A stretch of DNA of 64,000 nucleotides, from assembly GCF_044704955.1 (NCBI RefSeq), contig NC_091978.1, positions 319,920,001 to 319,984,000 of the forward strand, written 5' to 3'. Origin of the DNA: Pristiophorus japonicus (taxonomy: Eukaryota). The notes under the pieces were generated by a model that saw only the letters and a program-made list of their open reading frames with translations, searched no databases and had not been told where the DNA came from. The position numbers and the translations under genes are program-made. Numbering within the stretch: position 1 is the stretch's first letter; every line of letters starts with the position of its first letter. Of this stretch, positions 5,165 through 64,000 are shown one piece after another.

Positions 5165-6127
5165 ATTATTTATTCTGGGCATGGCCAGCATTTATTGCCC
5201 ATCCCTAATTGCTCTTGAGAAGGTGGTGGTGTGCCACCGCCTTGAACCGCTGCAGTCCGTGCGGTGAAGATACTCCTATAGGGAGTTCCAGGACTTTGAC
5301 CCAGCAACGATGAAGGAGTGGCGATGTATATCCAAGTCATGGTGGTGTGTAACTTGGAGGAGAACCTGCAGATGAAGGTGTTCCCATGCATCTGCTGCCC
5401 TTGTCCTTCTAGGTAGTAGAGGTAGCGGATTTGGGAGGTGCTGCTGAAGAAGCCAAGGCGAATTGCTGCAGTGCATTTGTAGATGGTACACACTGCAGCC
5501 ACGGTGCGCCGGTGGTGGAGGGAGTGAATTTTTAAGGTGGTGGATGGGGTGCCAACCAAGCGGGCTGTTTTGTCCTCGATGGTGTTGAGCTTCTTGAGTG
5601 TTGTTGGAACTGCAATCATCCAGGCAAGTGGAGAGTATTCCATTACACTCCTGACTTGTGCCTTGTAGATGATGGAAAAGCTTTGGGCAGTCAGGAGGTG
5701 AGATACTCGCTGCAGAATATCCAGCCTCTGACCTGCTCTTGTTGCCACATTATTTATGTGGCTGGTCCAGTTAAGTTTCTGATTATTGGTGACCCCCACC
5801 GCCCCCACCCGGATGTTGATGCTGGGGGATTCAGTGATGGTCGTGCCATTGAATTTCATACAGCGGTGGTTAGACTCTCGCTTGTTGGAGATAGTCATTG
5901 CTTGGCACTTGTGTGGCGTGAATGTAACTTGCCACTTATCAGCTCAAGCCTGAATGTCATCCAGGTCTTGTTGCATGCTGGAATGGACTGCTTCATTTTC
6001 TGAGCAGTTATGAATGGAACTGAACACTCTGCAATCATCAGCGAATATCCCCACTTCTAACCTTATGATGGAGGAAATGTCATTGATGAAGCAGCTAAAG
6101 ATGGTTGGTCCGAGGGCACTGCCCTAA
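5165..6127 (-). mobile_element. 5'-truncated 3' fragment of the same LINE family as 7547-10697
   Basis: ORF 5170..5898(-) QKLNWTSHINNVATRAGQRL...IYKAQVRSVMEYSPLAW matches 10060-10330(+). Same tail (gcaattagggatgggcaataaatgctggcc). Confidence 0.9.
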
Positions 6128-6928
6128 GTATCTCTTGCTGGTTCCACTCATCGCTGCACTTGTGTGCTAAACCATTCAGCACCTTTAAGTTGTTTAAAGT
6201 TCCTGAGCCTGGAGGACTAGAAAGGGTTGCTCTCTGATTGGCAGATCTGACAGAATTTAAAAGAGCTGCCGCATTCTATCACGCCCCAGTGCTGCTTTAT
6301 TTTTTTATCTACACATCATCATTCATAGCATAGAATTTAATAGTGTCAAAATGATCATCATTCATCTATGCAGTACTCTGAAGGTCCTTAATGTCTTCAA
6401 CAAATCTAATTCTGCTCATGTCAGAATTTAAGACTTACTGAGAAGGCACTCCTGATAAACCACTGCACTGTCAGTACAGAGAGAAAAGATAAGTTAGTGT
6501 TTTTGTCAAGCAGTTTTTACTGTCCTGCCATGAAAATGATCTGTGAACAGATTGTTTTTTTTTAATGAGCAGGAGGGCAAAACTCCAAACGTACAAAGCT
6601 ATTTTCAAAAGTAACCATGTGCTATAAATTGGGTATAACATTGGTCAGTCATCATGTGACGCAGAATAACTTTAAGGGGCTTGTAATATTGTGTATGGAC
6701 GCTTGCATTATTACGTTATCATGTGTGCACCACTGGCTGCATCAGAGCCAAACCCAATATTGTCCTCGCACACCACCCAGATCTATGCACTTCTCACAAG
6801 AGTTAATACATAAATCTTAGGAGCAGGAATCCTGGTGCTAAGGCAATTCGAGTGCTCCAACCGCCACTAAGCTAAGATCGGTAAATTCAGCACTGGCTAG
6901 GAACTAAAGCTAGGTTCTTCCGATTCTG

Positions 6929-7098: not shown

Positions 7099-7546
7099 TT
7101 CCGATTCTGTATGACTTAGCTCTCAATGTCACAACCAGTTGAGTAACTGGAAGATTCTGATGTAATTTTCTAAAGGTGAAAAGGATCATGTGCTAAGTAA
7201 TCACTTACATATGCATGATCTTAATTCACAAAGTGCTTGTGCTTGTGGATATTTTTTCTCTTCTGCATATTTCCTTATTTTCCTATATTTTATAAACATG
7301 CAAATAAGATAGGGTATATGCACGCTTATTATAGATTTCATTCTATTTGCATAATGTGTAGTCTCTAGACCAGTGTTTTACACTTGAGCCTCACCATTTT
7401 TGCTGGGTGGCAAATGGAAAAAAACATTATAATTAGATCCTGTTGTTTACTACTCCCTTTTTGCTCTTCTAATATCCCTTTTCATCTTCCTACTAAAGAT
7501 AACAAGGAATATAGAAAGTGTAGTACCAGCTCTCCAACACGTATGC

Positions 7547-10500
7547 ACTAATGATCCGGAGACATGAGTTCAAATCCTGGGGAATTTAAATTCTGTTAAG
7601 TAAATACATCTGAAATAAAAAGCTAGTATCAATAATGGTAACCATGAAACTACTGGATTATCATAAAAACCCAGCTGGTTCACTAATGTCCTTTAGGGAA
7701 GGTAAATTTGCTGTCCTTACCTGGTCTGGCCTATATGTGACTCCAGACCCACAGCAATGTGGTTCACTCTTAACTGCCTTCTGAAATGGCCTAGTCAAAC
7801 TGCTACAAAGAAGTATACTAAGAATAACACAAGATGGATCACCCGGCATTAACCTCGGCACCGGACACGATAAAGGCTCACCGAGCCCACTCCACTCTGA
7901 AAAGTCCTCCTCACTAACATTGTGCCAAAATGTGGGAGAGCCATCACACAGTCTAGTCAAGCAACAGCCTGACATAGTCATACTCACAGAATCATACCTT
8001 TCAGCCAACTTCCCAGACTCCTCCAATACCATCCCTGGGTATGTCCTGTCCCACCGGCAGGACAGAGCCACCAGAGGTGGTGGCACCGTGGTATACAATC
8101 AGGAGGGAATGGCCCTAGGAGTCCTCAACATTAAGTTCAAACCCCATGAAGTCTCATGGCATCAGGAGAAATATGGGCAAGGAAACCTTCTGCTGATTAC
8201 CACCTACACCCTTCCTCAGCTGATGAATCAGTACTCCTCCATGTTGAAAACCACTTGGAAGAAGTACTGAGGGTAGCAAGGGTACAGAACATACACTGGG
8301 TGGGGGACTTCAATGTCCATCACCAAGAATGGCTCAGTAGTACCACTATTGACCAAGCTGGCCGAGTCCTGAACGACATAGCTGCCAGACTGGGCCTGCG
8401 GCAGGTGGTGAAAGAACCAACACAAGGGAAAAACCTATTTGACCCCTTCCTCACCAGTCTACCTGTCGCAGATGCACCTGTCCATGACCATATTGGCAGG
8501 ACTGACAAGCGCACAGTCCTTGTGGAGATAAAGTCCCGTCTTCACACTGAGGACACTGCCCATCATGATGTGCGGCACTACCACCGTGTTAAGTGGGATA
8601 GATTCAGAACAGAACTAGCAGCTCAAAAGTGGGCTTCCGTGAGGCGCTGTGGGCCAACAGCAGCAGCAGAATTGTATTCTACCACAATCTGTAACCTCGT
8701 AGTATGGCATATCCCTCATTCTACCACTATCATCAAGTCAGGGGACCAACCCTGGTTCAATAAGGATTACAGAAGTGTATGCCAGGAACAGCACCAGGCG
8801 TACCAAAAAATAAAGTGCCAACACCGTGAAACTACATCACTGGACTAAGTACCTGCTAAACAGCGAAAACAGCATGCTATAGACAGAGCTAAGCAATCCC
8901 ACAATCAACGAATCAGATCAAAGCTCTGCAGTCCTGCCACCTCCAATCGTGAATGATGGTGGACAATTAAACAACTAACGGGAGGAGGGGGCTCCATGAA
9001 TTTGCGAGTGCAAAAGACTGGGCTAAAACATTCACAACCATCTTCAGCCAGAAGTGCCAAGTGGGTGATCCATATCGGCTTCCTCCTGAGGTCCCCATCG
9101 TCACAGAAGCCAGATTTCAGCCAATTGAATTCACTCCATGTGAGATCAAGAAACGGCTTCGTGCACAAGATACAGCAAAGGTTATGGGCTCCTACAACAT
9201 CCCGGCTGTCGTGCTGAAGACGTGCTCCAGAACTAGCCAAGCCTCGATCCAAGCTGTTCAAGTACAGCTACAACACTGGCATCTACCTAACAAAGTGGAA
9301 AATTGCACTGGTATGTCCTGTCCACAAATCCAGTTTGGCTAATTACCACCCCATCAGTCTCCTCTCAATCATCAGCAAGGTGAAGTAAGGTGTCGCCGAC
9401 AGTGCTATCAAGCGGCACTTACGCACCAATAACTTGCTCATCAATGCTCAGTTTGGATTTCGCCATGACCACTCGGCTCCAGACCTCATTACAGCCTTGG
9501 TCCAAACACGGACAGAAGAGCTTAATACCAGAGGTGAAGTGAGAGTGACTGCCTTTGACATCAAGGCAGCATTTGACCGAGTGTGTCTTCAAAGAACTCT
9601 AGTAAAATTGTAGTCTATGGAAATCAGGGGGAATACTTTCCACTGGCTGGAGTCATTCCTACCACAAAGGAAGATAGTTGTGGTTGTTGGGTACCAATCA
9701 TCTCAGCCCCAGGTCACTGCTGCAGGAGCTCCTCAGGGCCATGTCCTAGGTCCAACCATCTTCAGCTGCTTCATCCATGACCTTCTCTCCATCATAAGAT
9801 CAGAAGTATGGTTGCTCGCTGATGATTGCACAGCATTCAGTTCCATTTGCAACTCCTCGAATAATGAGCAGTCCTTGTCCACATGCAGAAAGACCTGGAC
9901 GACATTCAGGCTTGGGCTGACAAGTGGCAAGTAACATTCGTGCCTCAGGTGTCAGGCAATGACTATATCCAACAAGTGAGAGTCTAACCACCTCCCCTTG
10001 AGATTTAACGGCATTACCATCCCTGAATGCCCTCATCATCAACATCCTGGGGTTCACCATTGACCAAAAACTTAACTGGACCAGTCAGATAAATACTGTG
10101 GCTACAAGAACGGGTCAGAGGCCGGGTATCCTGTGGTAAGTCACTCTCCTTCTGACTCCTCAAAGCCTTTCCACCATCTACAAGGCACAAATCAGGAGTG
10201 TGATGGAATACTCTCCACTTGCCTGGCTGAGTGCAGCTCCAAAAACACTCAAGAAGCTCAACACCATCCAGTACAAAGCAGCCTGCTTGATTGGCAACCC
10301 ATCCACCATCTTAAACATTCACTCCCTCCACCCATCATGGTTGTAGTGTGTACCATCTATAAGATTCACCGCAGCAACTTGCCAAGTCTTCTTCGACAGC
10401 ACCTCCCCAAACTCGTGACCTCTACTGTCTAGAAGGACAAGGGCAGCAGGCGCATGAGGACACTATCACCTCCAAGTCACACACCATCCTGACTTGGAAA

Positions 10501-10697
10501 TGTATCGCCGTTCCTTCATCATCACTGGGTCAAAATCCTGGAACTCCCTCCCTAACAGCATTATGGAAGTACCTTCACCACATGGAATGCAGCAGTTCAA
10601 GGAAGTGGCTCACCACCACCTTCTCAAGGACAATTAGGGATGGGCAATAAATGCTGACCTTGTCAGTGACGCCCACATCCCATGAACAAATAAAAAA
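7547..10697 (+). mobile_element. Near full-length single-ORF LINE (CR1 group, possibly Zenon-like; APE + RT, no ORF1) with tRNA-like 5' head; pseudogenised copy
   Basis: APE motifs (KVLLTN at ~7901, QPDIVILTESYL, RGGG, WVGDFNVHH) and RT motifs (DIKAAFD, PQGHVLGP, LADD) across frameshifted ORFs 7920-9934. B-box GAGTTCAAATCC at 7566-7577. 3' end cacatcccatgaacaaataaaaaa. Confidence 0.9.
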
Positions 10698-22427: not shown

Positions 22428-23565
22428 ATAGAAACATAGAAACATAGACATTAAAACATAGAAAATAGGTGCAGGAGTAGGCCATTCGGCCCTTCGAGCC
22501 TGCACCGCCATTCAATGAGTTCATGGCTGAACATGCAACTTCAGGACCCCATTCCTGCTTTCTTGCCATATCCCTTGATCCCCCTAGTAGTAAGGACTAC
22601 ATCTACCTCCTGTTTGAATATATTTAGTGAATTGGCCTCAACAACTTTCTGTGGTAGGGAATTCCACAGGTTCACCACTCTCTGGGTGAAGAAGTTTGTC
22701 CTCATCTCAGTCCTAAATGGCTTTCCCCTTATCCTTAGACTGTGACCCCTGGTTCTGGACTTCCCCAACATTGGGAACATTCTTCCTGCATCCAACCTGT
22801 CTAAACCCGTCAGAATTTAAAATGTTTCTATAAGATCTCTTATTCTTCTGAACTCCAGAGAATACAAGCCCAGTTGATCCAGTCTTTCTTGATATGTCAG
22901 TCCCGCCATCCCGGGAATCAGTCTGGTGAACCTTCGCTGCACTCCCTCAATAGCAAGAATGTCTTTCCTCAAAGGAGACCAAAACTGTACACAATACTCC
23001 AGGTGTGGCCTCACCAAGGCCCTGTACAACTGTAGCAGCACCTCCCTGCCCCTGTACTCAAATCCCTTCGCTATGAAGGCCAACATGCCACTTGCTTTCT
23101 TAACCGCCTGCTGTACCTGCATGCAAACCTTCAATGACTGATGTACCATGACACCCAGGTCTCATTCCACCTCCCCTTTTCCTAATCTGTCACTATTCAG
23201 ATAATAGTCTGTCTCTCTCTGTTTTTACCACCAAAGTGGATAACCTCACATTTATCCACATTATAGTTCATCTGCCATGCATTTGCCCACTCACCTAACC
23301 TATCCAAATCACTTTGCAGTCTCATAGCATCCTCCACGCAGCTCACACTGCCACCCAACTTCGTGTCATCCGCAAATTTGGAGATAGTACATTTAATCCC
23401 CTCGTCTAAATCATTAATGTACAATGTAAACAGCTGGGACCCCAGCACAGAACCTTGCGGTACCCCACTAGTCACTGCCTGCCATTCTGAAAAGTACCCA
23501 TTTACTCCTACTCTTTGTTTCCTGTCTGCCAACCAGTTCTCAATCCATGTCAGCACACTACGCAC
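22428..23565 (-). mobile_element. Young 5'-truncated CR1 (RT C-terminal half + 3' UTR)
   Basis: ORFs 23197..23595, 22817..23149 and 22541..22795 (-): SGVPQGSVLG, KFADDTK, LVRPHLEYCVQFW. (TAGAAACA)n tail at 22428-22465. Confidence 0.95.
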
Positions 23566-23569
23566 TACC

Positions 23570-24082
23570 CTATACTTGTAATTGAGGTAGTGCAATGAAG
23601 ATTCACCAGACTGATTCCTGGGATGGGGGGATTGTCCTCTGAGGAGAGATTGAGTAGACTAGGCCTATATTCTCTAGAGTTTAGAAGAATGAGAGGTGAT
23701 CTAATTGAAACATACAACATTTTTACAGGACTTGACAGGCTAGATGCAGGGAGGATGTTTCCCCTGGCTGGAGAGTCTAGAACCAGGGGTCACAGTCTCA
23801 GAATAAGGGGTGAGCCATTTAGGACTGAGATGAGGAGAAATTTCTTCACTCAGAGGGTGGTGAATCTTTGGAATTCTCTACCCCAGAAGGCTGTGGAGGC
23901 TCAGTCATTGAATATATTCAAGACAGAGAGCAATAGATTTTGGGATATTAAGGGAATCAAGGGATATGGGGATAGTGCAGGAAAGTGGAGTTGAGGTAGA
24001 AGATCAGCCATGATTTCATTGAATGGCAGAGCAGGCTCGAGGGGCTGAGTTGCCTACTCCTGCTCCTATTTCTTATGTTCTT
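23570..24082 (+). mobile_element. CR1 3' fragment (its first ~18 bp sit at 22410-22427)
   Basis: ORF 23623..23994 LGLYSLEFRRMRGDLIETY...WNSLPQ; tail cctatttcttatgttctt. Confidence 0.9.
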
Positions 24083-40558: not shown

Positions 40559-40879
40559 ATGCCACTAATCGATCTCCAGGCAAAGCTCGGCATCGATATT
40601 GACAAATGGCTGCTGATCCAAAGTGGTGTGCAACCCAATAAACGTGCAGTTCGTTGCCAAGTGTTTGAGAAGGAGTGGATTGAATGCGCACATGGAATTG
40701 AGAAAATCCGAGCCAAGAAGTGGTGTAAACTGGAGATGGACGATTTCTATGAATGTATGCACTGGCAAAAATTGCAAAGGAGGCTGCATGAAATCAAAAC
40801 ACAAAAGGAAAAGCTGATCAAGGAAGGCAAGTACACTCCTCTAGACCACCACGCTGGCAATGATGAGCCATGTCCATAG
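40559..40879 (+). pseudogene. NDUFS5: Processed (intronless) retrocopy of NDUFS5 (complex I 15 kDa subunit); 106 aa ORF still open
   Basis: [42 protein letters not shown]...[11 protein letters not shown]...[11 protein letters not shown]. Twin CX9C motif; same length as vertebrate NDUFS5; no intron. AATAAA at 41052, ATTAAA at 41083, A-tract from 41103. Confidence 0.92.
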
Positions 40880-42628: not shown

Positions 42629-42817
42629 ACGTGTTTGTGCAGTTGCAGCGGGGAGAGAAGGCAAAAACAAGTAGAAAGAAATCGAAAGGTGACGTCACAG
42701 CCAAGGGGGTAAGTGATTGGCTGGTGATTGGTAAGTAGTTTTTCTTTTTCTTTTCTATATCAGTAAGTAACATTTAGCATTATTGTTGCCAAATTAAGTT
42801 TATCTAAGGGTTAAGTC

Positions 42818-43765
42818 ATGGCAGGACAGCTCGGACATGTGTTATGCTCCTCCTGTACTATGTGGGAAGTCAGGGACGCTTCCGGTGTCCCTGACGACTA
42901 CATGTGCGGGAAGTGCATCCACCTGCAGCTCCTGATGGACCGCATTGCGGTACTGGAGCTGCGGGTGGATTCACTCTGGAACATGCACGATGCTGAGAAT
43001 GACGTGAATAGCACGTTTAGAGAGTTGGTCTCACTGCAGGTAAAGGGTACACAGCCAGATAGTAAATGGGTGACCGACAGGAAGAGCAGTGCAAGGAAGG
43101 TCGTGCAGGGGTCCCCTGCGGTCATCCCCCTGCAAAACAGATACACCGCTTTGGGTACTGTTGAGGGGGATGCCTCATCAGGGGAGGGCAGCAGCAGCCA
43201 AGTTCATGGCACCATGGGTGGCTCTGCTGTACAGGAGGGCAGGAAAAAGAGTGGGAGAGCTATAGTGATAGGGGATTTGATTGTAAGGGGAATAGATAGG
43301 CGTTTCTGCGGCCGCAACCAAAACTCCAGGATGGTATGTTGCCTCCCTGGTGCAAGGGTCAAGGATGTCTCGGAGCGGGTGCAGGACATTCTGAAAAGAG
43401 AGCGTGAACAGCCAATTGTCGTGGTGCACATAGGTACCAACGATATAGGTAAAAAATGGGATGAGGTCCTACGAGACGAATATAGGGAGCTAGGAGCTAA
43501 ATTAAAAAGTAGGACCTCAAAAGTAGTAATCTCAGGATTGCTACCAATGCCACGTGCTAGTCAGAGTAGGAATCGCAGGATAGCCCAGATGAATATGTGG
43601 TTTGAGGAGTGGTGCAAAAGGGAGGGATTCAAATTCCTGGAACATTGGAACCGGTTCTGGGGGAGGTGGGACCAGTACAAACCGGACGGTCTGCATCTGA
43701 GCAGGACCGCAATCAATGTCCTCGGGGGAGTGTTTGCTAGTGCTGTTGGGGAGGAGTTAAATTAA
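42818..43765 (+). CDS. CR1 ORF1p (Zn finger-leucine zipper + SGNH/GDSL-like esterase), 315 aa, uninterrupted
   Basis: CSSC...CGKC; LQNRY; VIGDLIVRG (GDS motif mutated); HIGTND; DGLHL. Confidence 0.88.
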   Translation: MAGQLGHVLCSSCTMWEVRDASGVPDDYMCGKCIHLQLLMDRIAVLELRVDSLWNMHDAENDVNSTFRELVSLQVKGTQPDSKWVTDRKSSARKVVQGSPAVIPLQNRYTALGTVEGDASSGEGSSSQVHGTMGGSAVQEGRKKSGRAIVIGDLIVRGIDRRFCGRNQNSRMVCCLPGARVKDVSERVQDILKREREQPIVVVHIGTNDIGKKWDEVLRDEYRELGAKLKSRTSKVVISGLLPMPRASQSRNRRIAQMNMWFEEWCKREGFKFLEHWNRFWGRWDQYKPDGLHLSRTAINVLGGVFASAVGEELN

Positions 43766-46254
43766 CATGGCAGGGGGATGGGAACCTAGGTAGGGAGACA
43801 GAGGGAAATAAAATGGAGGCAGAAGCAAAACATAGAAAGGAGAATAGTAAAAGTGGAGGGCAGAGAAACCCAAGGCAAAAAACAAAAAGGGCCACATTAC
43901 AGCCAAATTCTAACGGGGCAAAGTGTGTTAAAAAGACAAGCCTGAAGGCTCTGTGCCTCAATGCGAGGAGTATTCGGAATAAGGTGGACGAATTAACAGC
44001 GCAGACAGCAGTTAACGGATATGATGTAATTGGCATCACGGAAACATGGCTCCAGGGTGATCAAGGCTGGGAACTCAACATCCAGGGGTATTCAACATTT
44101 AGGAAGGATAGGCAGAGAGGAAAAGGAGGCGGGGTGGCGTTGCTGGTTAAAAAGGAAATTAATGCTATAGTAAGGAGGGACATTAGCCTGGATGATGTGG
44201 AATCGGTATGGGTGGAGCTGCGGAATACCAAAGGGCAGAAAACGCTAGTGGGCGTTGTGTACAGACCACCAAACAGTAGTAATGAGGATGGGGACAGCAT
44301 CAAACAAGAAATAAGGGATATGTGCAATAAAGGTACAGCAGTTATCATGGGCGACTTTAATCTACATATTGATTGGGCTAACCAAACTGGTAGCAATGCG
44401 ATGGAGGAGGATTTTCTGGAGTGTATTAGGGATGGTTTTCTCGACCAATATATTGAGGAACCAACTACAGAGCTGGCCATCCTAGATTGGGTGATGTGTA
44501 ATGAGAAAGGACTAATTAGCAATCTTGTTGTGCGAGGCCCCTTGGGGAAGAGTGACCATAATATCGTAGAATTCTTTATTAAGATGGAGAGTGACACAGT
44601 TAATTCGGAAACTCGGGTCCTGAACTTAAGGAAAGGTAACTTCGACAGTATGAGGCGTGAATTGACTAGAATAGACTGGCAAAGCTTTGACGGTGGATAA
44701 GCAATGGCAAACATTTAAAGATCACATGGATGAACTTCAGCAATTGTACATCCCTGTCTGGAGTAAAAATAAAACGGAAAAGGTGGCTCAACCGTGGCTA
44801 ACAAGGGAAATTAAGGATAGTGTTAAAACCAAGGAAGAGGCATATAAATTGGCTAAAAAAAGTAACAAATCTGAGGACTGGGAGAAATTTAGAATTCAAC
44901 AAAGGAGAGCTAAGGGTTTAATTAAGAGGGGGAAAATAGAGTACGAGAGAAAGCTTGCAGGGAACATAAAAACTGATTGCAAAAGCTTCTATAAATATGT
45001 GAAGAAAAAAAGATTAGTGAAGACAAATGTAGGTCCCTTGCTGTCGGATTCAGATGAATTTATAATGGGGAACAAAGAAATGGCAGACCAGTTGAACAAA
45101 TACTTCGGTTCTGTCTTCACAAAGGAAGACACAAATAACCTTCCGAAAGTACTAAGGGACAGTCGGTCTAGTGAGAAGGAGGAACTGAAGGATATCCTTA
45201 TTAGGCAGGAAATTGTGTTAGGGAAATTGATGGAATTGAAGGCCGATAAATCCCTGGGGCCTGATAGTCTGCATCCCAGAGTACTTAAGGAAGTGGCCCT
45301 AGAAATAGTGGATGCATTGGTGATTATTTTCCAAAAGTCTATCGACTCTGGATCAGTTCCTATGGACTAGAGGGTAGCTAATGTAACACCACTTTGTAAA
45401 AAAGGAGGAAGTGAGAAAACGGGTAATTATAGACCGGTTAGCCTGACATCAGTCGTGGGGAAAATGTTGGAATCAATTATTAAGGATGAAATAGCAGCGC
45501 ATTTGGAAAGTAGTGACAGGATCTGTCCAAGTCAGCATGGATTTATGAAAGGGAAATCATGCTTGACGAATCTTCTGGAATTTTTTGAGGATGTAACTAG
45601 CAGTGTGGACAAGGGAGAACCAGTGGATGTGGTGTATTTGGACTTTCAAAAGGCTTTTGACAAGGTCCCGCACAAGAGATTGGTGTGCAAAATCAAAGTG
45701 CATGGTATTGAGGGTGATGTACTGACGTGGATAGAGAACTGGTTGGCAGACAGGAAGCAGAGAGTCGGGATAAACCGGTCCTTTTCAGAATGGCAGGCAG
45801 TGACTAGTGGAGTGCTGCAGGGCTCAATGCTGGGACCCCAGCTCTTTACAATATACATTAACGATTTGGATGAAGGAATTGAGTGTAATATCTCCAAGTT
45901 TGCAGATGACACTAAACTGGGTGGCGGTGTGAGCTGTGAGGAGGACGTTAAAAGGCTGCAGGGTGATTTGGACAGGTTAGGTGAGTGGGCAAATGCATGG
46001 CAGATGCAGTATAATATGGATAAATGTGAAGTTATCCATTTTGGGGGCAAAAACACGAAGGTAGAATATTATCTGAATGGCCTCCTGCACCTATTTTTAT
46101 GTTTCCTGTTCAAAAGACGTCCATTAACCATTGCTCTTTGTTTTTGACTACGCAACAACACTGACTACACCTTGAAAGTAAGTCATTGGCTGTGAAACAC
46201 TTTAGGACATCCTGGGCTGTAAAAGGCATGAAATAGATGCAAGTTCTTTCTTCT

Positions 46255-48399: not shown

Positions 48400-48750
48400 G
48401 GGTACGATAGCACAGTGGTTATGTTACTGGACTAATAATCCAGAGGCCTGGAGTAATGATCCAGTGAGTTTAAATCCCACTACAGCAGCTGGGTAATTTA
48501 AAATTCTATTAATTAAATAAATCTGGAATAAAATAGTGATTTTTAAAAAAACCTACTGGATTGTTGTAAAACCCCATCTGGTTCACTAATGTCTTTTAGG
48601 GAAGGAAATCTGCCGTCCCTACCCAGTCTGGCCTATATGTGACTCCAGACCCACAGCAATATGGTTAACTCTGAAATGGCCTAGCAAGGGCAATCAGGGT
48701 TGGGCAATAAATGCCGGTCTTGCCAGCGACGCCCACATCCCATGACCGAA
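48400..48750 (+). mobile_element. tRNA-headed SINE made of the 5' head and 3' tail of the 7547-10697 LINE
   Basis: A-box TAGCACAGTGG (48408-48418), B-box-like GAGTTTAAATCCC (~48466-48478). Body matches 7547-7795; tail gggcaataaatgccggtcttgccagcgacgcccacatcccatga matches 10628-10686. Confidence 0.9.
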
Positions 48751-49230
48751 TTTTGTAAAAATGTGAGTGGTTTCAGTTAAACATTAAATATGTTAGCATC
48801 CTCATGAATATCTGAACAGTCCTGAGCTTTTAATCTTTTTGTTTCCTCCCATGCTTTTGTTATATTTCTAGCACTCTGTCTTTTTTGCTTTTCACTCTTT
48901 TTCGCTTTCTTTTTTTGACATCTGCATACATTTCAATTGCTTTTTGTTTTACTTCTCTTCCCCGATATCATCAACTTGGCTATCAATGTTGGTACAATTA
49001 ATTGCAGGGCCATATTGCAGTGCCAAGACTTTGCATTAGAATACAGTAAAGAAGCATGCAGTAAAAAAATTTGGGAGGATAAAGGACATTTTTTAAAAAA
49101 ATGCATTTTCAAATCTGATTTATTTTTTTAAATGAACACACTGATGTTGACTTCACAAACTAATATTAGTCACAGCTGGCAGAGGCCAGCTAACCTTTTC
49201 CTACAGCTGTTTCAGTTGTGCGCTGTTCAT

Positions 49231-52214: not shown

Positions 52215-55200
52215 TGACAGCCCACTTCTACCTCCTTCCCAAGATCCACAAACAGGACTGCCCTGGTAGACCCATCATTTCAGCATGTTCTTGCCCCACA
52301 GAACTTATTTCTTCCTATCTCAACTCTATTTTTTCTCCCCTTGTCCAGTCTCTTCCCACCTACATTTGCTACTCCTCCGACGCCTTAATAGTTTCCAGTT
52401 TCCCGGCCCCAACCATCTCCTTTTCACCATGGACATCCAATCCCTCGACACTTCCATCCTCCACCAGGATGGCCTGAGGGCGCTCTGCTGCTTCCTCGAG
52501 CAGAGGCCCAACCAGTCCTCATCCACCATCACCCTCCTCTGCCAGGCTGAACTTGTTTTCATATTGAACAACTTCTCCTTAAACTCCACTCACTTTTTCC
52601 AAATTAAAGTTGCTGTGGGAACCCACATTGGTCCGAGCTATGCCTGCCTTTTCATGAGATGTGTGGAACATTCTTTGTTCCAGTCCCACTCGGGTCCTCT
52701 CCCTCACCTCTTTTTCCAGGGCATCAAACAGGAAATTAGGGGTGCATGCAATAAAGGTGCAGCAATTATAATGGGTGACTTTAATATGCACATAGATTGG
52801 GCTAACCAAACTGGAAGCAATACAGTGGAGGAGGATTTCCTGGAGTGCATAAGGGATGGTTTTCTAGACCAATATGTCGAGGAACCAACTAGGGGGGAGG
52901 CCATCTTAGACTGGGTGTTGTGTAATGAGAGAGGATTAATTAGCAATCTCATTGTGCGAGGCCCCTTGGGGAAGAGTGACCATAATATGGTGGAATTCTG
53001 CATTAGGATGGAGAATGAAACAGTTAATTCAGAGACCATGGTCCAGAACTTAAAGAAGGGTAACTTTGAAGGTATGAGGCGTGAATTGGCTAGGATAGAT
53101 TGGCGAATGATACTTAAGGGGTTGACAGTGGATGGGCAAAGGCAGACATGGATGAACTACAACAATCGTACAATCCTGTCTGGTGTAAAAATAAAAAAGG
53201 GAAGGTGGCTCAACCGTGGCTATCAAGCGAAATTAGGGATAGTATTAAAGCCAAGGAATTGGCATACAAATTGGCCAGAAATAGCAGCGAACCCGGGGAC
53301 TGGGAGAAATTTAGAACTCAGCAGAGGAGGACAAAGGGTTTGATTAGGGCAGGGAAAATGGAGTACGAGAAGAAGCTTGCAGGGAATATTAAGGCAGATT
53401 GCAAAAGTTTCTATAGATATGTAAAGAGAAAAAGGTTAGTAAAGACAAACATAGATCCCCTGCAGTTAGAATCAGGGGAAGTCATAACGGGGAACAAAGA
53501 AATGGCAGACCAATTGAACAAGTACTTTGGTTCGGTATTCACTAAGGAGGACACAAACAACCTTCCGGATATAAAAGGGGTCAGAGGGTCTAGTAAGGAG
53601 GAGGAACTGAGGGAAATCTTTATTAGTCGGGAAATTGTGTTGGGGAAATTGATGGGATTGAAGGCCGATTAAATCCCCAGGGCCTGATGGACTGCATCCC
53701 AGAGTACTTAAGGAGGTGGCCTTGGAAATAGTGGATGCATTGACAGTCATTTTCCAACATTCCATTGACTCTGGATCAGTTCCTATGGAGTGGAGGGTAG
53801 CCAATGTCACCCCACTTTTTAAAAAAACGAGGGAGAGAGAAAACAGGGAATTATAGACCGGTCAGCCTGACCTCAGCAGTGGGTAAAATGATGGAATCAA
53901 TTATTAAGGATGTCATAGCAGCGCATTTGGAAAAAGGTGACATATAGGTCCAAGTCAGCATGGATTTGTGAAAGGGAAATCATGCTTGACAAATCTTCTA
54001 GAATTTTTTGAGGATGTTTCCAGTAAAGTGGACAAAGGAGAACCAGTTGATGTGGTATATTTGGACTTTCAGAAGGCTTTCGACAAGGTCCCACACAAGA
54101 GATTAATGTGCAAAGTTAAAGCACATGGGATTGGGGGTAGTGTGCTGACGTGGATTGAGAACTGGTTGTCAGACAGGAAGCAAAGAGTAGGAGTAAATGG
54201 GTACTTTTCAGAATGGCAGGCAGTGACTAGTGGGGTACCGCAAGGTTCTGTGCTGGGGCCCCAGCTGTTTACATTGTACATTAATGATTTAGATGAGGGG
54301 ATTAAATGTAGTATCTCCAAATTTGCGGATGACACTAAGTTGGGTGGCAGTGTGAGCTGCGAGGAGGATTCTATGAGGCTGCAGAGTGACTTGGATAGGT
54401 TAGGTGAGTGGGCAAATGCATGGCAGATGAAGTATAATGTGGATAAATGTGAGGTTATCCACTTTGGTGGTAAAAACAGAGAGACAGACTATTATCTGAA
54501 TGGTGACAGATTAGGAAAAGGGGAGGTGCAACGAGACCTGGGTGTCATGGTACATCAGTCATTGAAAGTTGGCATGCAGGTACAGCAGGCGGTTAAGAAA
54601 GCAAATGGCATGTTGGCCTTCATAGCGAGGGGATTTGAGTACAGGGGCAGGGAGGTGTTGCTACGGTTGTACAGGGCCTTGGTGAGGCCACACCTGGAGT
54701 ATTGTGTACAGTTTTGGTTTCCTAACTTGAGGAAGGACATTCTTGCTATTGAGGGAGTGCAGCGAAGGTTCACCAGACTGATTCCCAGGATGGTGGGACT
54801 GACCAATCAAGAAAGACTGGATCAACTGGGCTTGTATTCACTGGAGTTCAGAAGAATGAGAGGGGACCTCATAGAAACGTTTAAAATTCTGACGGGTTTA
54901 GACAGGTTAGATGCAGGAAGAATGTTCCCAATGTTGGGGAAGTCCAGAACCAGGGGTCACAGTCTAAGGATAAGGGGTAAGCCATTTAGGACCGAGATGA
55001 GGAGAAACTTCTTCACCCAGAGAGTGGTGAACCTGTGGAATTCTCTACCACAGAAAGTAGTTGAGGCCAATTCACTAAATATATTCAAAAGGGAGTTAGA
55101 TGAAGTCCTTACTACTCGGGGGATCAAGGGGTATGGCGAGAAAGCAGGAAGGGGGTACTGAAATTGCATGTTCAGCCATGAACTCATTGAATGGCGGTGC

Positions 55201-56285
55201 AGGCTAGAAGGGCTGAATGGCCTACTCCTGCACCTATTTTCTATGTTTCTATTGATGATTGTATCGGTGCCGTTTCCTACTCTCGCTCTGAACTTGAAAA
55301 TTTCATTCATTTTGCATCCAATTTCCACCCTTTCCTCACCTTCACATGGTCCATCTCCGACTCTTCCCTACCTCGACTTCCCCATCTCCATCTCTGCGGA
55401 TAGGCTTTTGACCAGTATCCACTATAAATCCACTGACTCCCACAGCTACCGAGACGACACTTCCTCCCAGCCCGCATCCTGTAAGGACTCCATTCCATTC
55501 TCCCAGTTTCTCCGTCTCCGTCGCATCCGCCCTGACAATGCCACCTTTCACACTACTGCCTCTGACATGTCTTCCTTTCTCCTCAACAGAGGTTCCCCTC
55601 CGCCGTGGTTAACATGGCCCTCGACCGTGCCCGCTCTATTTCTCGCGCCTCTGATCTCATCCCTTCCCCTCCCTCTCAGAACCACGACAGGGTTCCCCTT
55701 GACCTCACCTTTCACCCCACCAGCCTCCACATTCAATGGATCATCCTCCACCATTTCCGCCACATCTAGCGTGATCCCACCACCAATCACATCTTCCCCT
55801 CTCCTCTCCCTCAGCACTTCGAAGGGACCACTCCCTCCGCAACACCCTGATCATTCCACAGTCACCCCCAGCACCCCCTCCCCTTCCCACGGCACCTTTC
55901 TGTGCAAGTGCAGGAGATGCAACACCTGCCTTTTTACCACCTCCCTTCCCACTATCCAGGGCCCCAAACACTCCTTCCTGGTGAAACAGCAATTTACTTG
56001 TACTTTCAATTTAGTATACTGTATTCGCTGCTCACGATGTGGTCGACTCTACATTGGGGAGCACCTCCGTTCAGTCCGCATGTGTGATCCTGAGCTTTCG
56101 ATCGCCTGTCACTTTAATTCTTCACTCCATTCCCACTCTGACCTCTCCATCCTCGGTCTCCTACACTGTTCCAATGAAGCTTAATGCAAGCTCAAAGAAC
56201 AGCACCTCATCTTTAATTTAGGCACTTTACAGCCTTCTGTACTTGACGTCGAGTTCACCAATTTCAGAGTGTAACCGCTGCCAAT
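52215..56285 (+). mobile_element. Penelope-like element (RT + GIY-YIG), split by CR1
   Basis: FYLLPKIHK..PGRPIIS, FTMDIQSL, GTHIGPSYACLF (52215-52719). After 55251: IDD, YLDF, SIPFSQFLRLRRI, CKCRRCNTC, NLVYCIRCSRCGRLYIGE. Confidence 0.9.
52720..55250 (+). mobile_element. Young 5'-truncated CR1 (APE C-terminus, RT, 3' UTR)
   Basis: ORF 53968..55161 is an uninterrupted 397 aa RT (YLDFQKAFD, PQGSVLGP, FADD); upstream frameshifts; tail ctattttctatgtttct. Confidence 0.95.
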
Positions 56286-61111: not shown

Positions 61112-63247
61112 CTTCTCCCTCCTGAATGAAGAAGTTATTGTAACAAACATCATACATAACTTGCATGGACTTATTTTGCCAAATTTACAAATTTAACTTA
61201 ACCACTTGTTTTCTGTTTTGAAGAGGATACCTTCGCTCTCGAACCGAACCTTCCAAACATGGTGTCAAATTTTAAACTCATTCGAAGTTGATCCTGAGGA
61301 ACGTTTTCCTCCACGGGATTTCCTTGATTTTCATTTGAACTCACTATAACTTCAGACTCTTTATTTTCCTGACTCGGACTCGGACTTAAATTCTGATTTT
61401 CTCTTGGATTTGTTTCCAGTACATTGGATGTAGGTATCAAAACTCTCTGATGAGTCAGAAATAATTGAATCATTCCCACCTTCAACTCCTTTTATGTCTT
61501 AGGTAAAATATGATCAATGTGAACAAACCTAACCTGTCCATTATCAAACATCTTGACCAAATATGTGCGAAGACCGCATATCTTCACTACTTTTCCTAGT
61601 GACCGCTTTACCCATTTATGGTGATGGTTCTTCACTCTCACCACCTGATTTAATTTCACACTTCTCTGTTTTACTCGACTTCTATCATGATTTTCTTTCT
61701 GACTTAATTGTGTCTCTTCTATGGACTGCGCCAAATTTGGTTTTAACAACGAGAATCTGGTTCGTGGCTGTCGTTTGAGAAACAACTCTGCTGGTGTTCT
61801 ACCAGTAATTGTATGAGGAATATTACAATATGTAATTAGGAAATTAGCCAATTTGTGATCCAATGACAACTGTCGTTTCTTTGGATTTGGATCCAACATT
61901 TGTTATACAATTTGTACAGTTCGCTCTGCTGCACCATTCAAAGCAGGGTGGGTGGAACCTTGGTATGTTTCACACCATTTTGGCTTGTGAACTGTGCAAA
62001 TTCTTCTGAATGGAATTGTGGTCCATTATCGAAAACAATTTCTTCTGGGAGGCCAAATGAAGAAAATAAACTTCGTAAAATGTCTAATGTTTTACTTGTT
62101 GTTATTTTCCACATTGGAAACACCTCAACCCACTTCGAATGGCTATCAATCACAATGAACAATTGTTGTCCTTCTAGCTCAGCAAAATCAATATGTAGCC
62201 TTTGCCACACCCTGGGAGGCCATTTCCATGGCTGTAATGGTACTGATGGTGGTTGCTTGCTTACTGATTGACATGTCATACGCTGACTCTATATCTTCAT
62301 CAAGACCTGGCCATCATTAATAACTGCGTGCAAAACTTTTGGTCAAGCACATTACCAGGTGCTGGTCATGGAGGTCTCCTAATAATTTTGACCTAAATTT
62401 ATTTGGTATAACCACTCTTGCACCCCACATGATACAATCTTTATCGACTGATAATTCATTCCTACGAATGAAGAATGGATGAATATCTTTGTCTGTTACC
62501 TGGTTTGGCCATCCATTTTCAATATAATCATACACCTTTGACATCATTGGGTCACTTTGGTTGCTCCGCCAATCTCTTCAGCTGTTCATCAAGGTATAAA
62601 AAAATAGAACACTTCTTCCCTAACGGGTGTAATTTGTGATGGGGAAGACAATCTATACATAGCATCAACATTACTGTGATCAGCTGATCATCTTTATTCA
62701 ATATCATATGTATATGCTGACAAAATCAAAGCCTATCTCTGTATTCGGGCTACAGCTAATGTTGGAACTAGGGATTACTGTTAGGGGCTTATGGTCCATA
62801 ACGATGGTAAACTTACAACCGTACAAGTATTTGTGGAACTTCTTGACCCCAAAAATTAATGCCAAAGCTTCCCTTTCGATTTGCAATAATTATGCTCACT
62901 GGCACTGAGAGTGCGTGAAGCAAAAGCAATTGGTCTCTCCTCCCCACTACTTAATACATGAGAGATTACTGCCCCAGCTCCATACGGAGAGGCATCACAT
63001 GCTAACTTAATCTCCTTACATATATCAATAGTGAACTAACATGGTGCTCTCTACCAATTTGCTTTTACACTCCTTGAATGCCATATCGCATTCTTTTGAC
63101 CACTTCCAATGGACCTGTTTTTTCAATAGTTCATTCAGTGGATGTAATACGGTAGCCAAATTTGGTAGGAACTTCGCATTATAGTTCAAAAGACCCAAGA
63201 ATGAACGAAGTTCAGTGACATTCCTGGGAGTGGGTGCATTTCTAATT
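60938..63247 (-). mobile_element. Ty3/Gypsy LTR retrotransposon (K02A2.6/Mag-like): RT-RH linker, RNase H, integrase, PPT and 3' LTR; decayed
   Basis: [27 protein letters not shown]; WQRLHIDF..IDSHSKWVE..DNGPQF; PHTITGRTPAELF. PPT aggagggagaag (61123-61112). Confidence 0.92.
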
Positions 63248-64000
63248 GCAAATGCATGGCAGATAAAGTATAATGTGGATAAATGTGAGGTTATCCACTT
63301 TGGTGGTAAAAACAGAGAGACAGACTATTATCTGAATGGTGACAGATTAGGAAAAGGGGAGATGCAACAAGACCTGGGTGTCATGGTACATCAGTCATTG
63401 AAGGTTGGCATGCAGGTACAGCAGGCGGTTAAGAAAGCAAATGGCATGTTGGCCTTCATAGCGAGGGGATTTGAGTACAGGGGCAGGGAAGTGTTACTAC
63501 AATTGTTCAGGGCCTTGGTGAGGCCACACCTGGAGTATTGTGTACAGTTTTGGTCTCCTAACTTGAGGAAGGACATTCTTGCTATTGAGGGAGTGCAGCG
63601 AAGGTTCACCAGACTGATTCCCGGGATGGCGGGACTGACATATCAAGAAAGACTGGATCAACTGGGCTTGTATTCACTGGAGTTCAGAAGAATGAGAGGG
63701 GATCTCATAGAAACGTTTAAAATTCTGACGGGTTTAGACAGGTTAGATGCAGGAAGAATGTTCCCAATGTTGGGGAAATCCAGAACCAGGGGTCACAGTC
63801 TAAGGATAAGGGGAAAGCCATTTTAGGACCGAGATGAGGAGAAACTTCTTCACCCAGAGAGTGGTGAACCTGTGGAATTCTCTACCACAGAAAGTTGTTG
63901 AGACCAATTCAGTAAATGTATTCAAAAAGGAGTTAGATGAAGTCCTTACTACTAGGGGGGTCAAGGTATATGGCGAGAAAGCAGGAATGGGGTACTGAAG
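63248..64000 (+). mobile_element. Young 5'-truncated CR1 inserted in Gypsy pol; runs off the window
   Basis: Near-identical to 54412-55163; ORF 63215..63826. Confidence 0.95.

Follow-up and report, generated by a model that had tools for sequence, protein, structure and literature searches.

A short element joining the 5' leader and 3' tail of a tRNA-headed Zenon LINE in the shark Pristiophorus japonicus

The window analyzed here, a stretch of 64,000 nucleotides from Pristiophorus japonicus, contains a short element (48400-48760, + strand) that is a decayed copy of a multi-copy family. It is composed entirely of a Zenon LINE's 5' leader and final ~70 bases, and it probably arose by internal deletion of the LINE. 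The deletion is preferred as the origin because all of the short form's sequence is also found in the LINE and because a second breakpoint exists. Since a tRNA-like head is already present at the start of Zenon in this family, one deletion would be enough to give an element with the shape of a SINE.

In the accepted view, the birth of a SINE takes at least two events, because the small-RNA head is acquired independently of the LINE part, which is either a tail or a deleted LINE. With a headed LINE, birth is reduced to one deletion, and the shark and ray genomes now available allow such births to be counted and their origin and direction to be established. There is a consequence for annotation as well: the abundant head and body will be labeled SINE or LINE according to the library, so that repeat counts in elasmobranchs are distorted.

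Structure of the short element

The element is a worn shark-type repeat of about 350 bases on the + strand. It comprises a tRNA-like head (48400-48489), a body in common with the Zenon 5' leader (48489-48684), and a Zenon 3' tail (48685-48761) with the last three codons, the stop, the 3' stem-loop and remnants of the A-rich end. A search for box motifs places the A box, TAGCACAGTGG, at 48408-48418 and the B box at 48468-48477. The match of the head to tRNA is weak: it scores 16.2 bits (E=1.8) against the Rfam tRNA model, which is below threshold, and ARAGORN calls a tRNA at 48403-48489 under relaxed scoring alone, the default run over the whole window giving no tRNA genes. The isotype called for this decayed copy is Ile; in the Zenon consensuses the putative anticodon loop, by eye, is CTAGTAA, i.e., AGT (Thr). 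T runs in the body at 48540 and 48594 are predicted Pol III stops in the decayed copy. RNA folds of the head and of the tail are no better than those of shuffled sequences (z -0.3 and -0.1), and the fold of the LINE tail has a z of -1.9. No convincing target-site duplication was found at either the short element or the LINE of the window, so the short copy is not marked by one as an independent insertion.

A segment of the anticodon arm is duplicated in tandem in the head of the short element (starts at 48427 and 48448, within 48427-48465). By eye, the same duplication is present in the SquAca Zenon consensuses, SquAca_Zenon-1 opening with the same head as the short element, and other species carry a different insert there. 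Both window elements also have many deletions of 10-15 nt relative to the published consensuses (7576-7590, 7795, 7913-7925, 48672, and 48685). Several of these fall between short direct repeats, and SquAca_Zenon-3 is similar; such deletions are perhaps a habit of the Zenon reverse transcriptase.

The element thus has features of two classes. As in tRNA-derived SINEs (SINE2), there is a head with A and B boxes, the tRNA match being weak, and a 3' tail in common with the partner LINE. As in short internally deleted elements (SIDEs), the ends of one LINE are joined without the coding middle, and the junction recurs in contigs and in two protein records, as expected of a multi-copy element with a common breakpoint.

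Match to the LINE of the window

The original prediction had aligned ~48450-48686 with 7547-7797 of the LINE and had the short element jump from there directly to the last ~65 bp of the LINE. Both are borne out. In the pairwise alignment of 48449-48687 with 7544-7798, 196 of 225 columns are identical, and blastn and nhmmer in the window give E=5e-35 for 48445-48684 against 7540-7794. The segment 48685-48751 matches the last 67 bases of the LINE (10625-10691) with 85% identity over 67 nt (E=2e-16). The leader and tail blocks adjoin at 48685 with no bases between. The common stretch, put at 290 bp in the prediction, comes to ~240 nt inside the window, as the LINE copy begins within the tRNA head. 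The first ~45 nt of the short element have a partner only in published consensuses and none in the window. In the 64 kb, the head and body occur only in these two elements, at 48400-48760 and at 7544.

The Zenon LINE and its elasmobranch relatives

By its 5' sequence, 7544-10697 (+) is a decayed elasmobranch Zenon. Its 5' leader (7544-7798) consists of a truncated tRNA head, with a B box at 7568 and no A box, and the body. The linker and a single decayed EN-RT frame follow (7799-10637, +), with EN from ~7901 (Pfam Exo_endo_phos_2, E=3e-6; RVT_1, E=7e-23). The frame has many stops and frameshifts. As in Zenon, there is a single ORF with an APE endonuclease and RT and no ORF1, for which there is no room, because EN starts ~100 nt behind the leader. 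The 3' tail (10625-10697, +), part of which is retained by the short element, has a stem-loop and a short poly-A, the A-rich end lying at 10688-10697; in hundreds of contigs, loose ends with A runs are found behind 10686/10697. The named proteins closest to the LINE are ray and shark gene models with 57-66% identity, compared to ~30% for the canonical CR1 copies of the window. A second Zenon copy, 5'-truncated and on the opposite strand (5178-6138, -), is 79% identical to the first and also carries the tail.

ORF1-less Zenon elements with poly-A tails have been reported in five elasmobranchs (Stuart et al., 2026; PMC13343379). Each Zenon consensus in Supplementary Table 2 of that paper was compared over its first 400 characters, by motif search and by eye. 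A 19-letter body motif is present in 7 of the 10 rows, and these are all seven of the shark and ray rows, from five species (CarCar, HypSab, RhiTyp and ScyCan Zenon-1; SquAca Zenon-1 to -3). The seven consensuses (2886-3314 nt) have an A-/B-box-like opening followed by the body, behind which a linker of CAAGCCACTCAGTTGTA type leads to the endonuclease. The window LINE is like them in head, body, linker, length (2.9-3.3 kb), the single EN-RT ORF and the A-rich tail (PMC13343379). By eye, the short element and the LINE of the window agree with the SquAca consensuses in their head variant; the ray consensus and the other three from sharks lack this variant. In the first 400 characters of the two hagfish rows and the one coelacanth row no such head or body is seen, their 5' ends being possibly incomplete. 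The chimaera has almost no Zenon (179 kb; PMC13343379). The lack of the leader in other Zenons implies that the elasmobranch LINE gained it, the donor being either a tRNA or a SINE of older date. The text of Stuart et al. has no occurrence of tRNA, promoter, polymerase or non-autonomous, and so describes neither the head nor a short derivative (PMC13343379). No description of a tRNA-headed Zenon or its SINE was found in the literature searched, most subscription journals, Repbase Reports and Dfam being outside its reach and supplements being places where one might exist.

Junctions at the family level

Contigs of public runs were aligned to the LINE at 80% likeness, with four runs per comparison and five different runs overall (of 24); contig counts do not equal copy numbers. 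With the tail excluded from the query, loose ends behind 7794 were found in 260 (run X1), 463 (X10) and 59 (X20) contigs, and in X23 none was at 7794 among the loose ends listed. The majority reading of the 7794 loose ends is the LINE linker, CAAGCCACTCAGTTGTA..., with an agreement of 0.61-0.64, the two forms being pooled. Among the joints listed, single contigs join the body to EN (7753>7960, 7762>7933, 7764>7943 and 7778>7948). In the whale-shark gene model P0045, the body-coded MSFREGNLPS is joined to the start of EN. It had been held that the relationship would fall if the head were essentially never attached to the ORF elsewhere; all 7 of the 7 elasmobranch Zenon consensuses, and the linker reads of the contigs, join the two. 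In public contigs, both kinds of junction, head with ORF and head with tail, recur across several organisms. Contig depth over the body is above that at the start of EN (for example, ~100,000-190,000 against ~2,000 in X23), depth being no measure of copy number.

Among the 15 joints listed, four run from body to tail, and such joints are present in all four runs. They account for 7 of 12 tabulated rows, in 4 of which CAGT(T) lies directly on the tail CAAGG and in 2 within a few bases of it. The translations of protein records P0050 and P0054 run from body through linker to tail, across the short-form junction. The contig joints and the protein records agree, so that the family junction, as read from sequence, is CAGT-T-CAAGG, with one common T and no inserted sequence. 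These joints, in four runs and in P0050 and P0054, also contradict the view that the short form is a deletion at a single locus. Mapping of breakpoints, proposed in the prediction as a choice between one and many, gave from the contigs this main junction and a second joint, 7794>10605, represented by one contig in each of four runs. At the second joint 20 more bases of the ORF end are retained. In X20, in the one contig whose letters were displayed, there is extra LINE-only sequence on both sides, including more of the linker.

The word caa(g), at which the prediction had placed the jump, is not the breakpoint of the family. In body-to-tail contigs a linker of 14 nt, of CAAGCCACTCAGTT type, precedes the tail. 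In the copy at 48400-48760 this linker was lost later, between two CAAG words. Searches for related DNA gave no matches in viral, metagenome and prokaryote collections, and a peptide-pattern scan for related loci gave 127 stretches, none of which was confirmed.

Origin of the short element

The two origins proposed in the prediction, deletion of the ORF from the LINE or capture of a SINE's head and body by the LINE, are supported as the alternatives to be weighed. Deletion fits better: no base of the short form is absent from the LINE, the second breakpoint exists, and the two window elements have a head variant in common. The extra LINE-only sequence at the second joint can arise only by deletion from the LINE. 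The common SquAca head variant, seen by eye, is in favor of deletion too, although recombination between the two forms could also give it. In Lepidoptera, Zenon has yielded deletion elements at least four times (PMC6740152).

The route by deletion would be the following. Elasmobranch Zenon, whose consensuses start with tRNA head, body, linker and EN-RT, would have acquired the head in the shark and ray lineage, probably when the template was switched to a tRNA or to an RNA, already in existence, with a tRNA head. As the joints read, the leader at CAGT(T) came to be joined to (T)CAAGG near the ORF end with an overlap of one base, and at least one other breakpoint was used. The reverse transcriptase may have produced the join by jumping along its Zenon RNA template, or a deletion in DNA may have done so. 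From the A and B boxes, Pol III would then make a short RNA, and the Zenon protein would copy it in trans via the retained 3' stem-loop. The copy at 48400-48760 decayed thereafter: its 14-nt linker was lost and T runs appeared.

The head with its 200-nt body resembles a ready-made SINE, and this is the counterpoint to deletion: an older SINE could have donated the leader of the LINE. A tRNA SINE using the Zenon tail would have given head and body to Zenon by template switching, and the main short family would be the ancestral SINE. Several observations point this way. Zenons outside elasmobranchs are without the head in the consensus starts compared, hence the leader was gained later (PMC13343379), and lepidopteran Zenon and Persaeus are described as without tRNA homology (PMC6740152). 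Tails of Zenon are used as tails by bivalve tRNA SINEs (PMC11481361), and template switching between SINE and LINE RNAs is an accepted route to chimeras (PMC4824008). However, as every base of the short form is also present in the LINE, the switch would have needed to fall exactly at the border of SINE body and tail. The second breakpoint is left unexplained, and no known SINE body was matched (the SacSINE1 head and the EbuSINE2 Deu body differ by eye, and motif searches of three supplements gave 0 matches). On balance this direction is unlikely.

Recombination or template switching could also have carried head and body back and forth repeatedly between the LINE and the short form, with no single direction. 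Contigs contain many internal joints across the LINE, and lineage-specific head variants are common to both forms, as such exchange would have it. Internal joints are, however, predicted equally by one-way deletions, and repeated exchange is considered quite improbable. That the window holds an accident of a single locus, either a LINE whose middle was deleted once it had inserted or a LINE inserted into a SINE, would suit the missing target-site duplications and the single copy of each form in the window. It is hardly credible, being contradicted at the family level: both junctions recur in further contigs and organisms, in protein records and in the consensuses in print.

Transcription and translation of the headed LINE

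LINEs are usually transcribed by Pol II and SINEs by Pol III. Not one TTTT occurs on the sense strand of 7544-10690 (3147 nt), where base composition predicts 6.2 (P=0.002); dinucleotide shuffles of the same stretch predict 3.0, and 13 of 300 shuffles had none. The second Zenon copy has one TTTT in 961 nt, at a place where the first has CTTT. In 7264 nt from four CR1 stretches comparable in T content, there are 19 TTTT (binomial P=0.0016, the copies not being independent). Against specificity, CCCC is also scarce in the window LINE (7 versus 12.4 expected, P=0.03), and TT is under-represented (0.77). The absence of TTTT weakly suggests transcription of the LINE by Pol III.

It is conceivable, though we lean slightly against it, that elasmobranch Zenon would be an autonomous coding LINE transcribed end to end by Pol III from a tRNA-derived promoter, repeatedly shedding SINEs by single deletions. 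Translation would then be cap-independent, since the endonuclease would have no AUG in frame ahead of it. In the EN frame of the HypSab consensus, the one checked in this respect by eye, the last stop upstream is not followed by an ATG. If the parent is truly read by Pol III, a coding Pol III transcript of 3.3 kb would be translated without a cap, contrary to the division of LINEs and SINEs between the two polymerases.

A conserved ATG of the linker (window 7835-7960 and the consensuses) opens a short MKPDGPPGIDL-like frame, which in the HypSab consensus is, by eye, out of the EN frame. An ATG in the body was tried as the start of the LINE protein and found no support: a search with the junction translation gave five matches, three derived from the body without continuation into EN and two from unrelated repeats.

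Other features of the window

An intron-less NDUFS5-like frame at 40559-40879 (+; Pfam Ndufs5, E=1e-45) is likely a retrocopy. A canonical CR1 of nearly full length, whose ORF1 is an esterase (GDSL) and whose ORF2 is split, occupies 42815-46147 (+), and more CR1 pieces lie at 22640-23658, 52800-55161 and 63230-63826. Two segments flanking one CR1 copy (52270-52750 and 55162-56184, +) resemble what would be the RT and the GIY-YIG portions of a Penelope-like element interrupted by CR1; neither has a Pfam match at E 0.01.

Comparison with known systems

The premise of the prediction, that SINEs share only the tail with their partner LINE, was too strong, as bipartite SINEs of RTE and Vingi elements (Kojima, 2018; PMC5786205) and SIDEs of Zenon (Wang et al., 2019; PMC6740152) have been published. 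Among these is Persaeus of Lepidoptera, a SIDE built from the 5' end and the 3' end of Zenon and described as without tRNA homology or a Pol III promoter (PMC6740152). Persaeus is like the shark element in being composed of Zenon ends, with breakpoints near the ends of the ORF, and its origins were repeated. It differs in having a variable center and 5-bp direct repeats at the break, whereas the shark element has a tRNA-like head, no center and an overlap of one base.

The bipartite SINEs (Bov-tA, AfroSINE, CoeSINE4 and others) have both 5' and 3' sequence in common with a LINE, as here. In their case, a deleted RTE or Vingi element received the tRNA head secondarily, and the LINE lacks it (PMC5786205); the Zenon LINE carries the head itself.

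The DeuSINEs SacSINE1 and LmeSINE1, and the V-SINE HE1, are tRNA-headed with a LINE-like tail, as the short element is (PMC5499810; PMC10468316). SacSINE1, as described, has another head and a tail of L2-2_CM type, and its LINE is without the SacSINE1 head or body (PMC5499810). HE1 pairs with HER1 (PMC10468316). By eye, the head and body differ from positions 2-78 of SacSINE1 and from the Deu body of EbuSINE2 (supplement of PMC5786205), so the combination of head and Deu body that marks SacSINE1 and the DeuSINEs is not that of the element. An exact short-motif search of the supplements for the central domains of CORE-, V- and Meta-SINEs gave no matches, exact words being prone to miss old homology. 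A first reading, in which a SacSINE1 or Deu-domain SINE had been captured by the LINE, was dropped, head and body being both different.

The SINE-LINE relationship that was predicted to be unusual is therefore real, and it holds for the family. It is unusual in that a probable SIDE is at the same time a SINE in structure, because the parent LINE carries the tRNA head.
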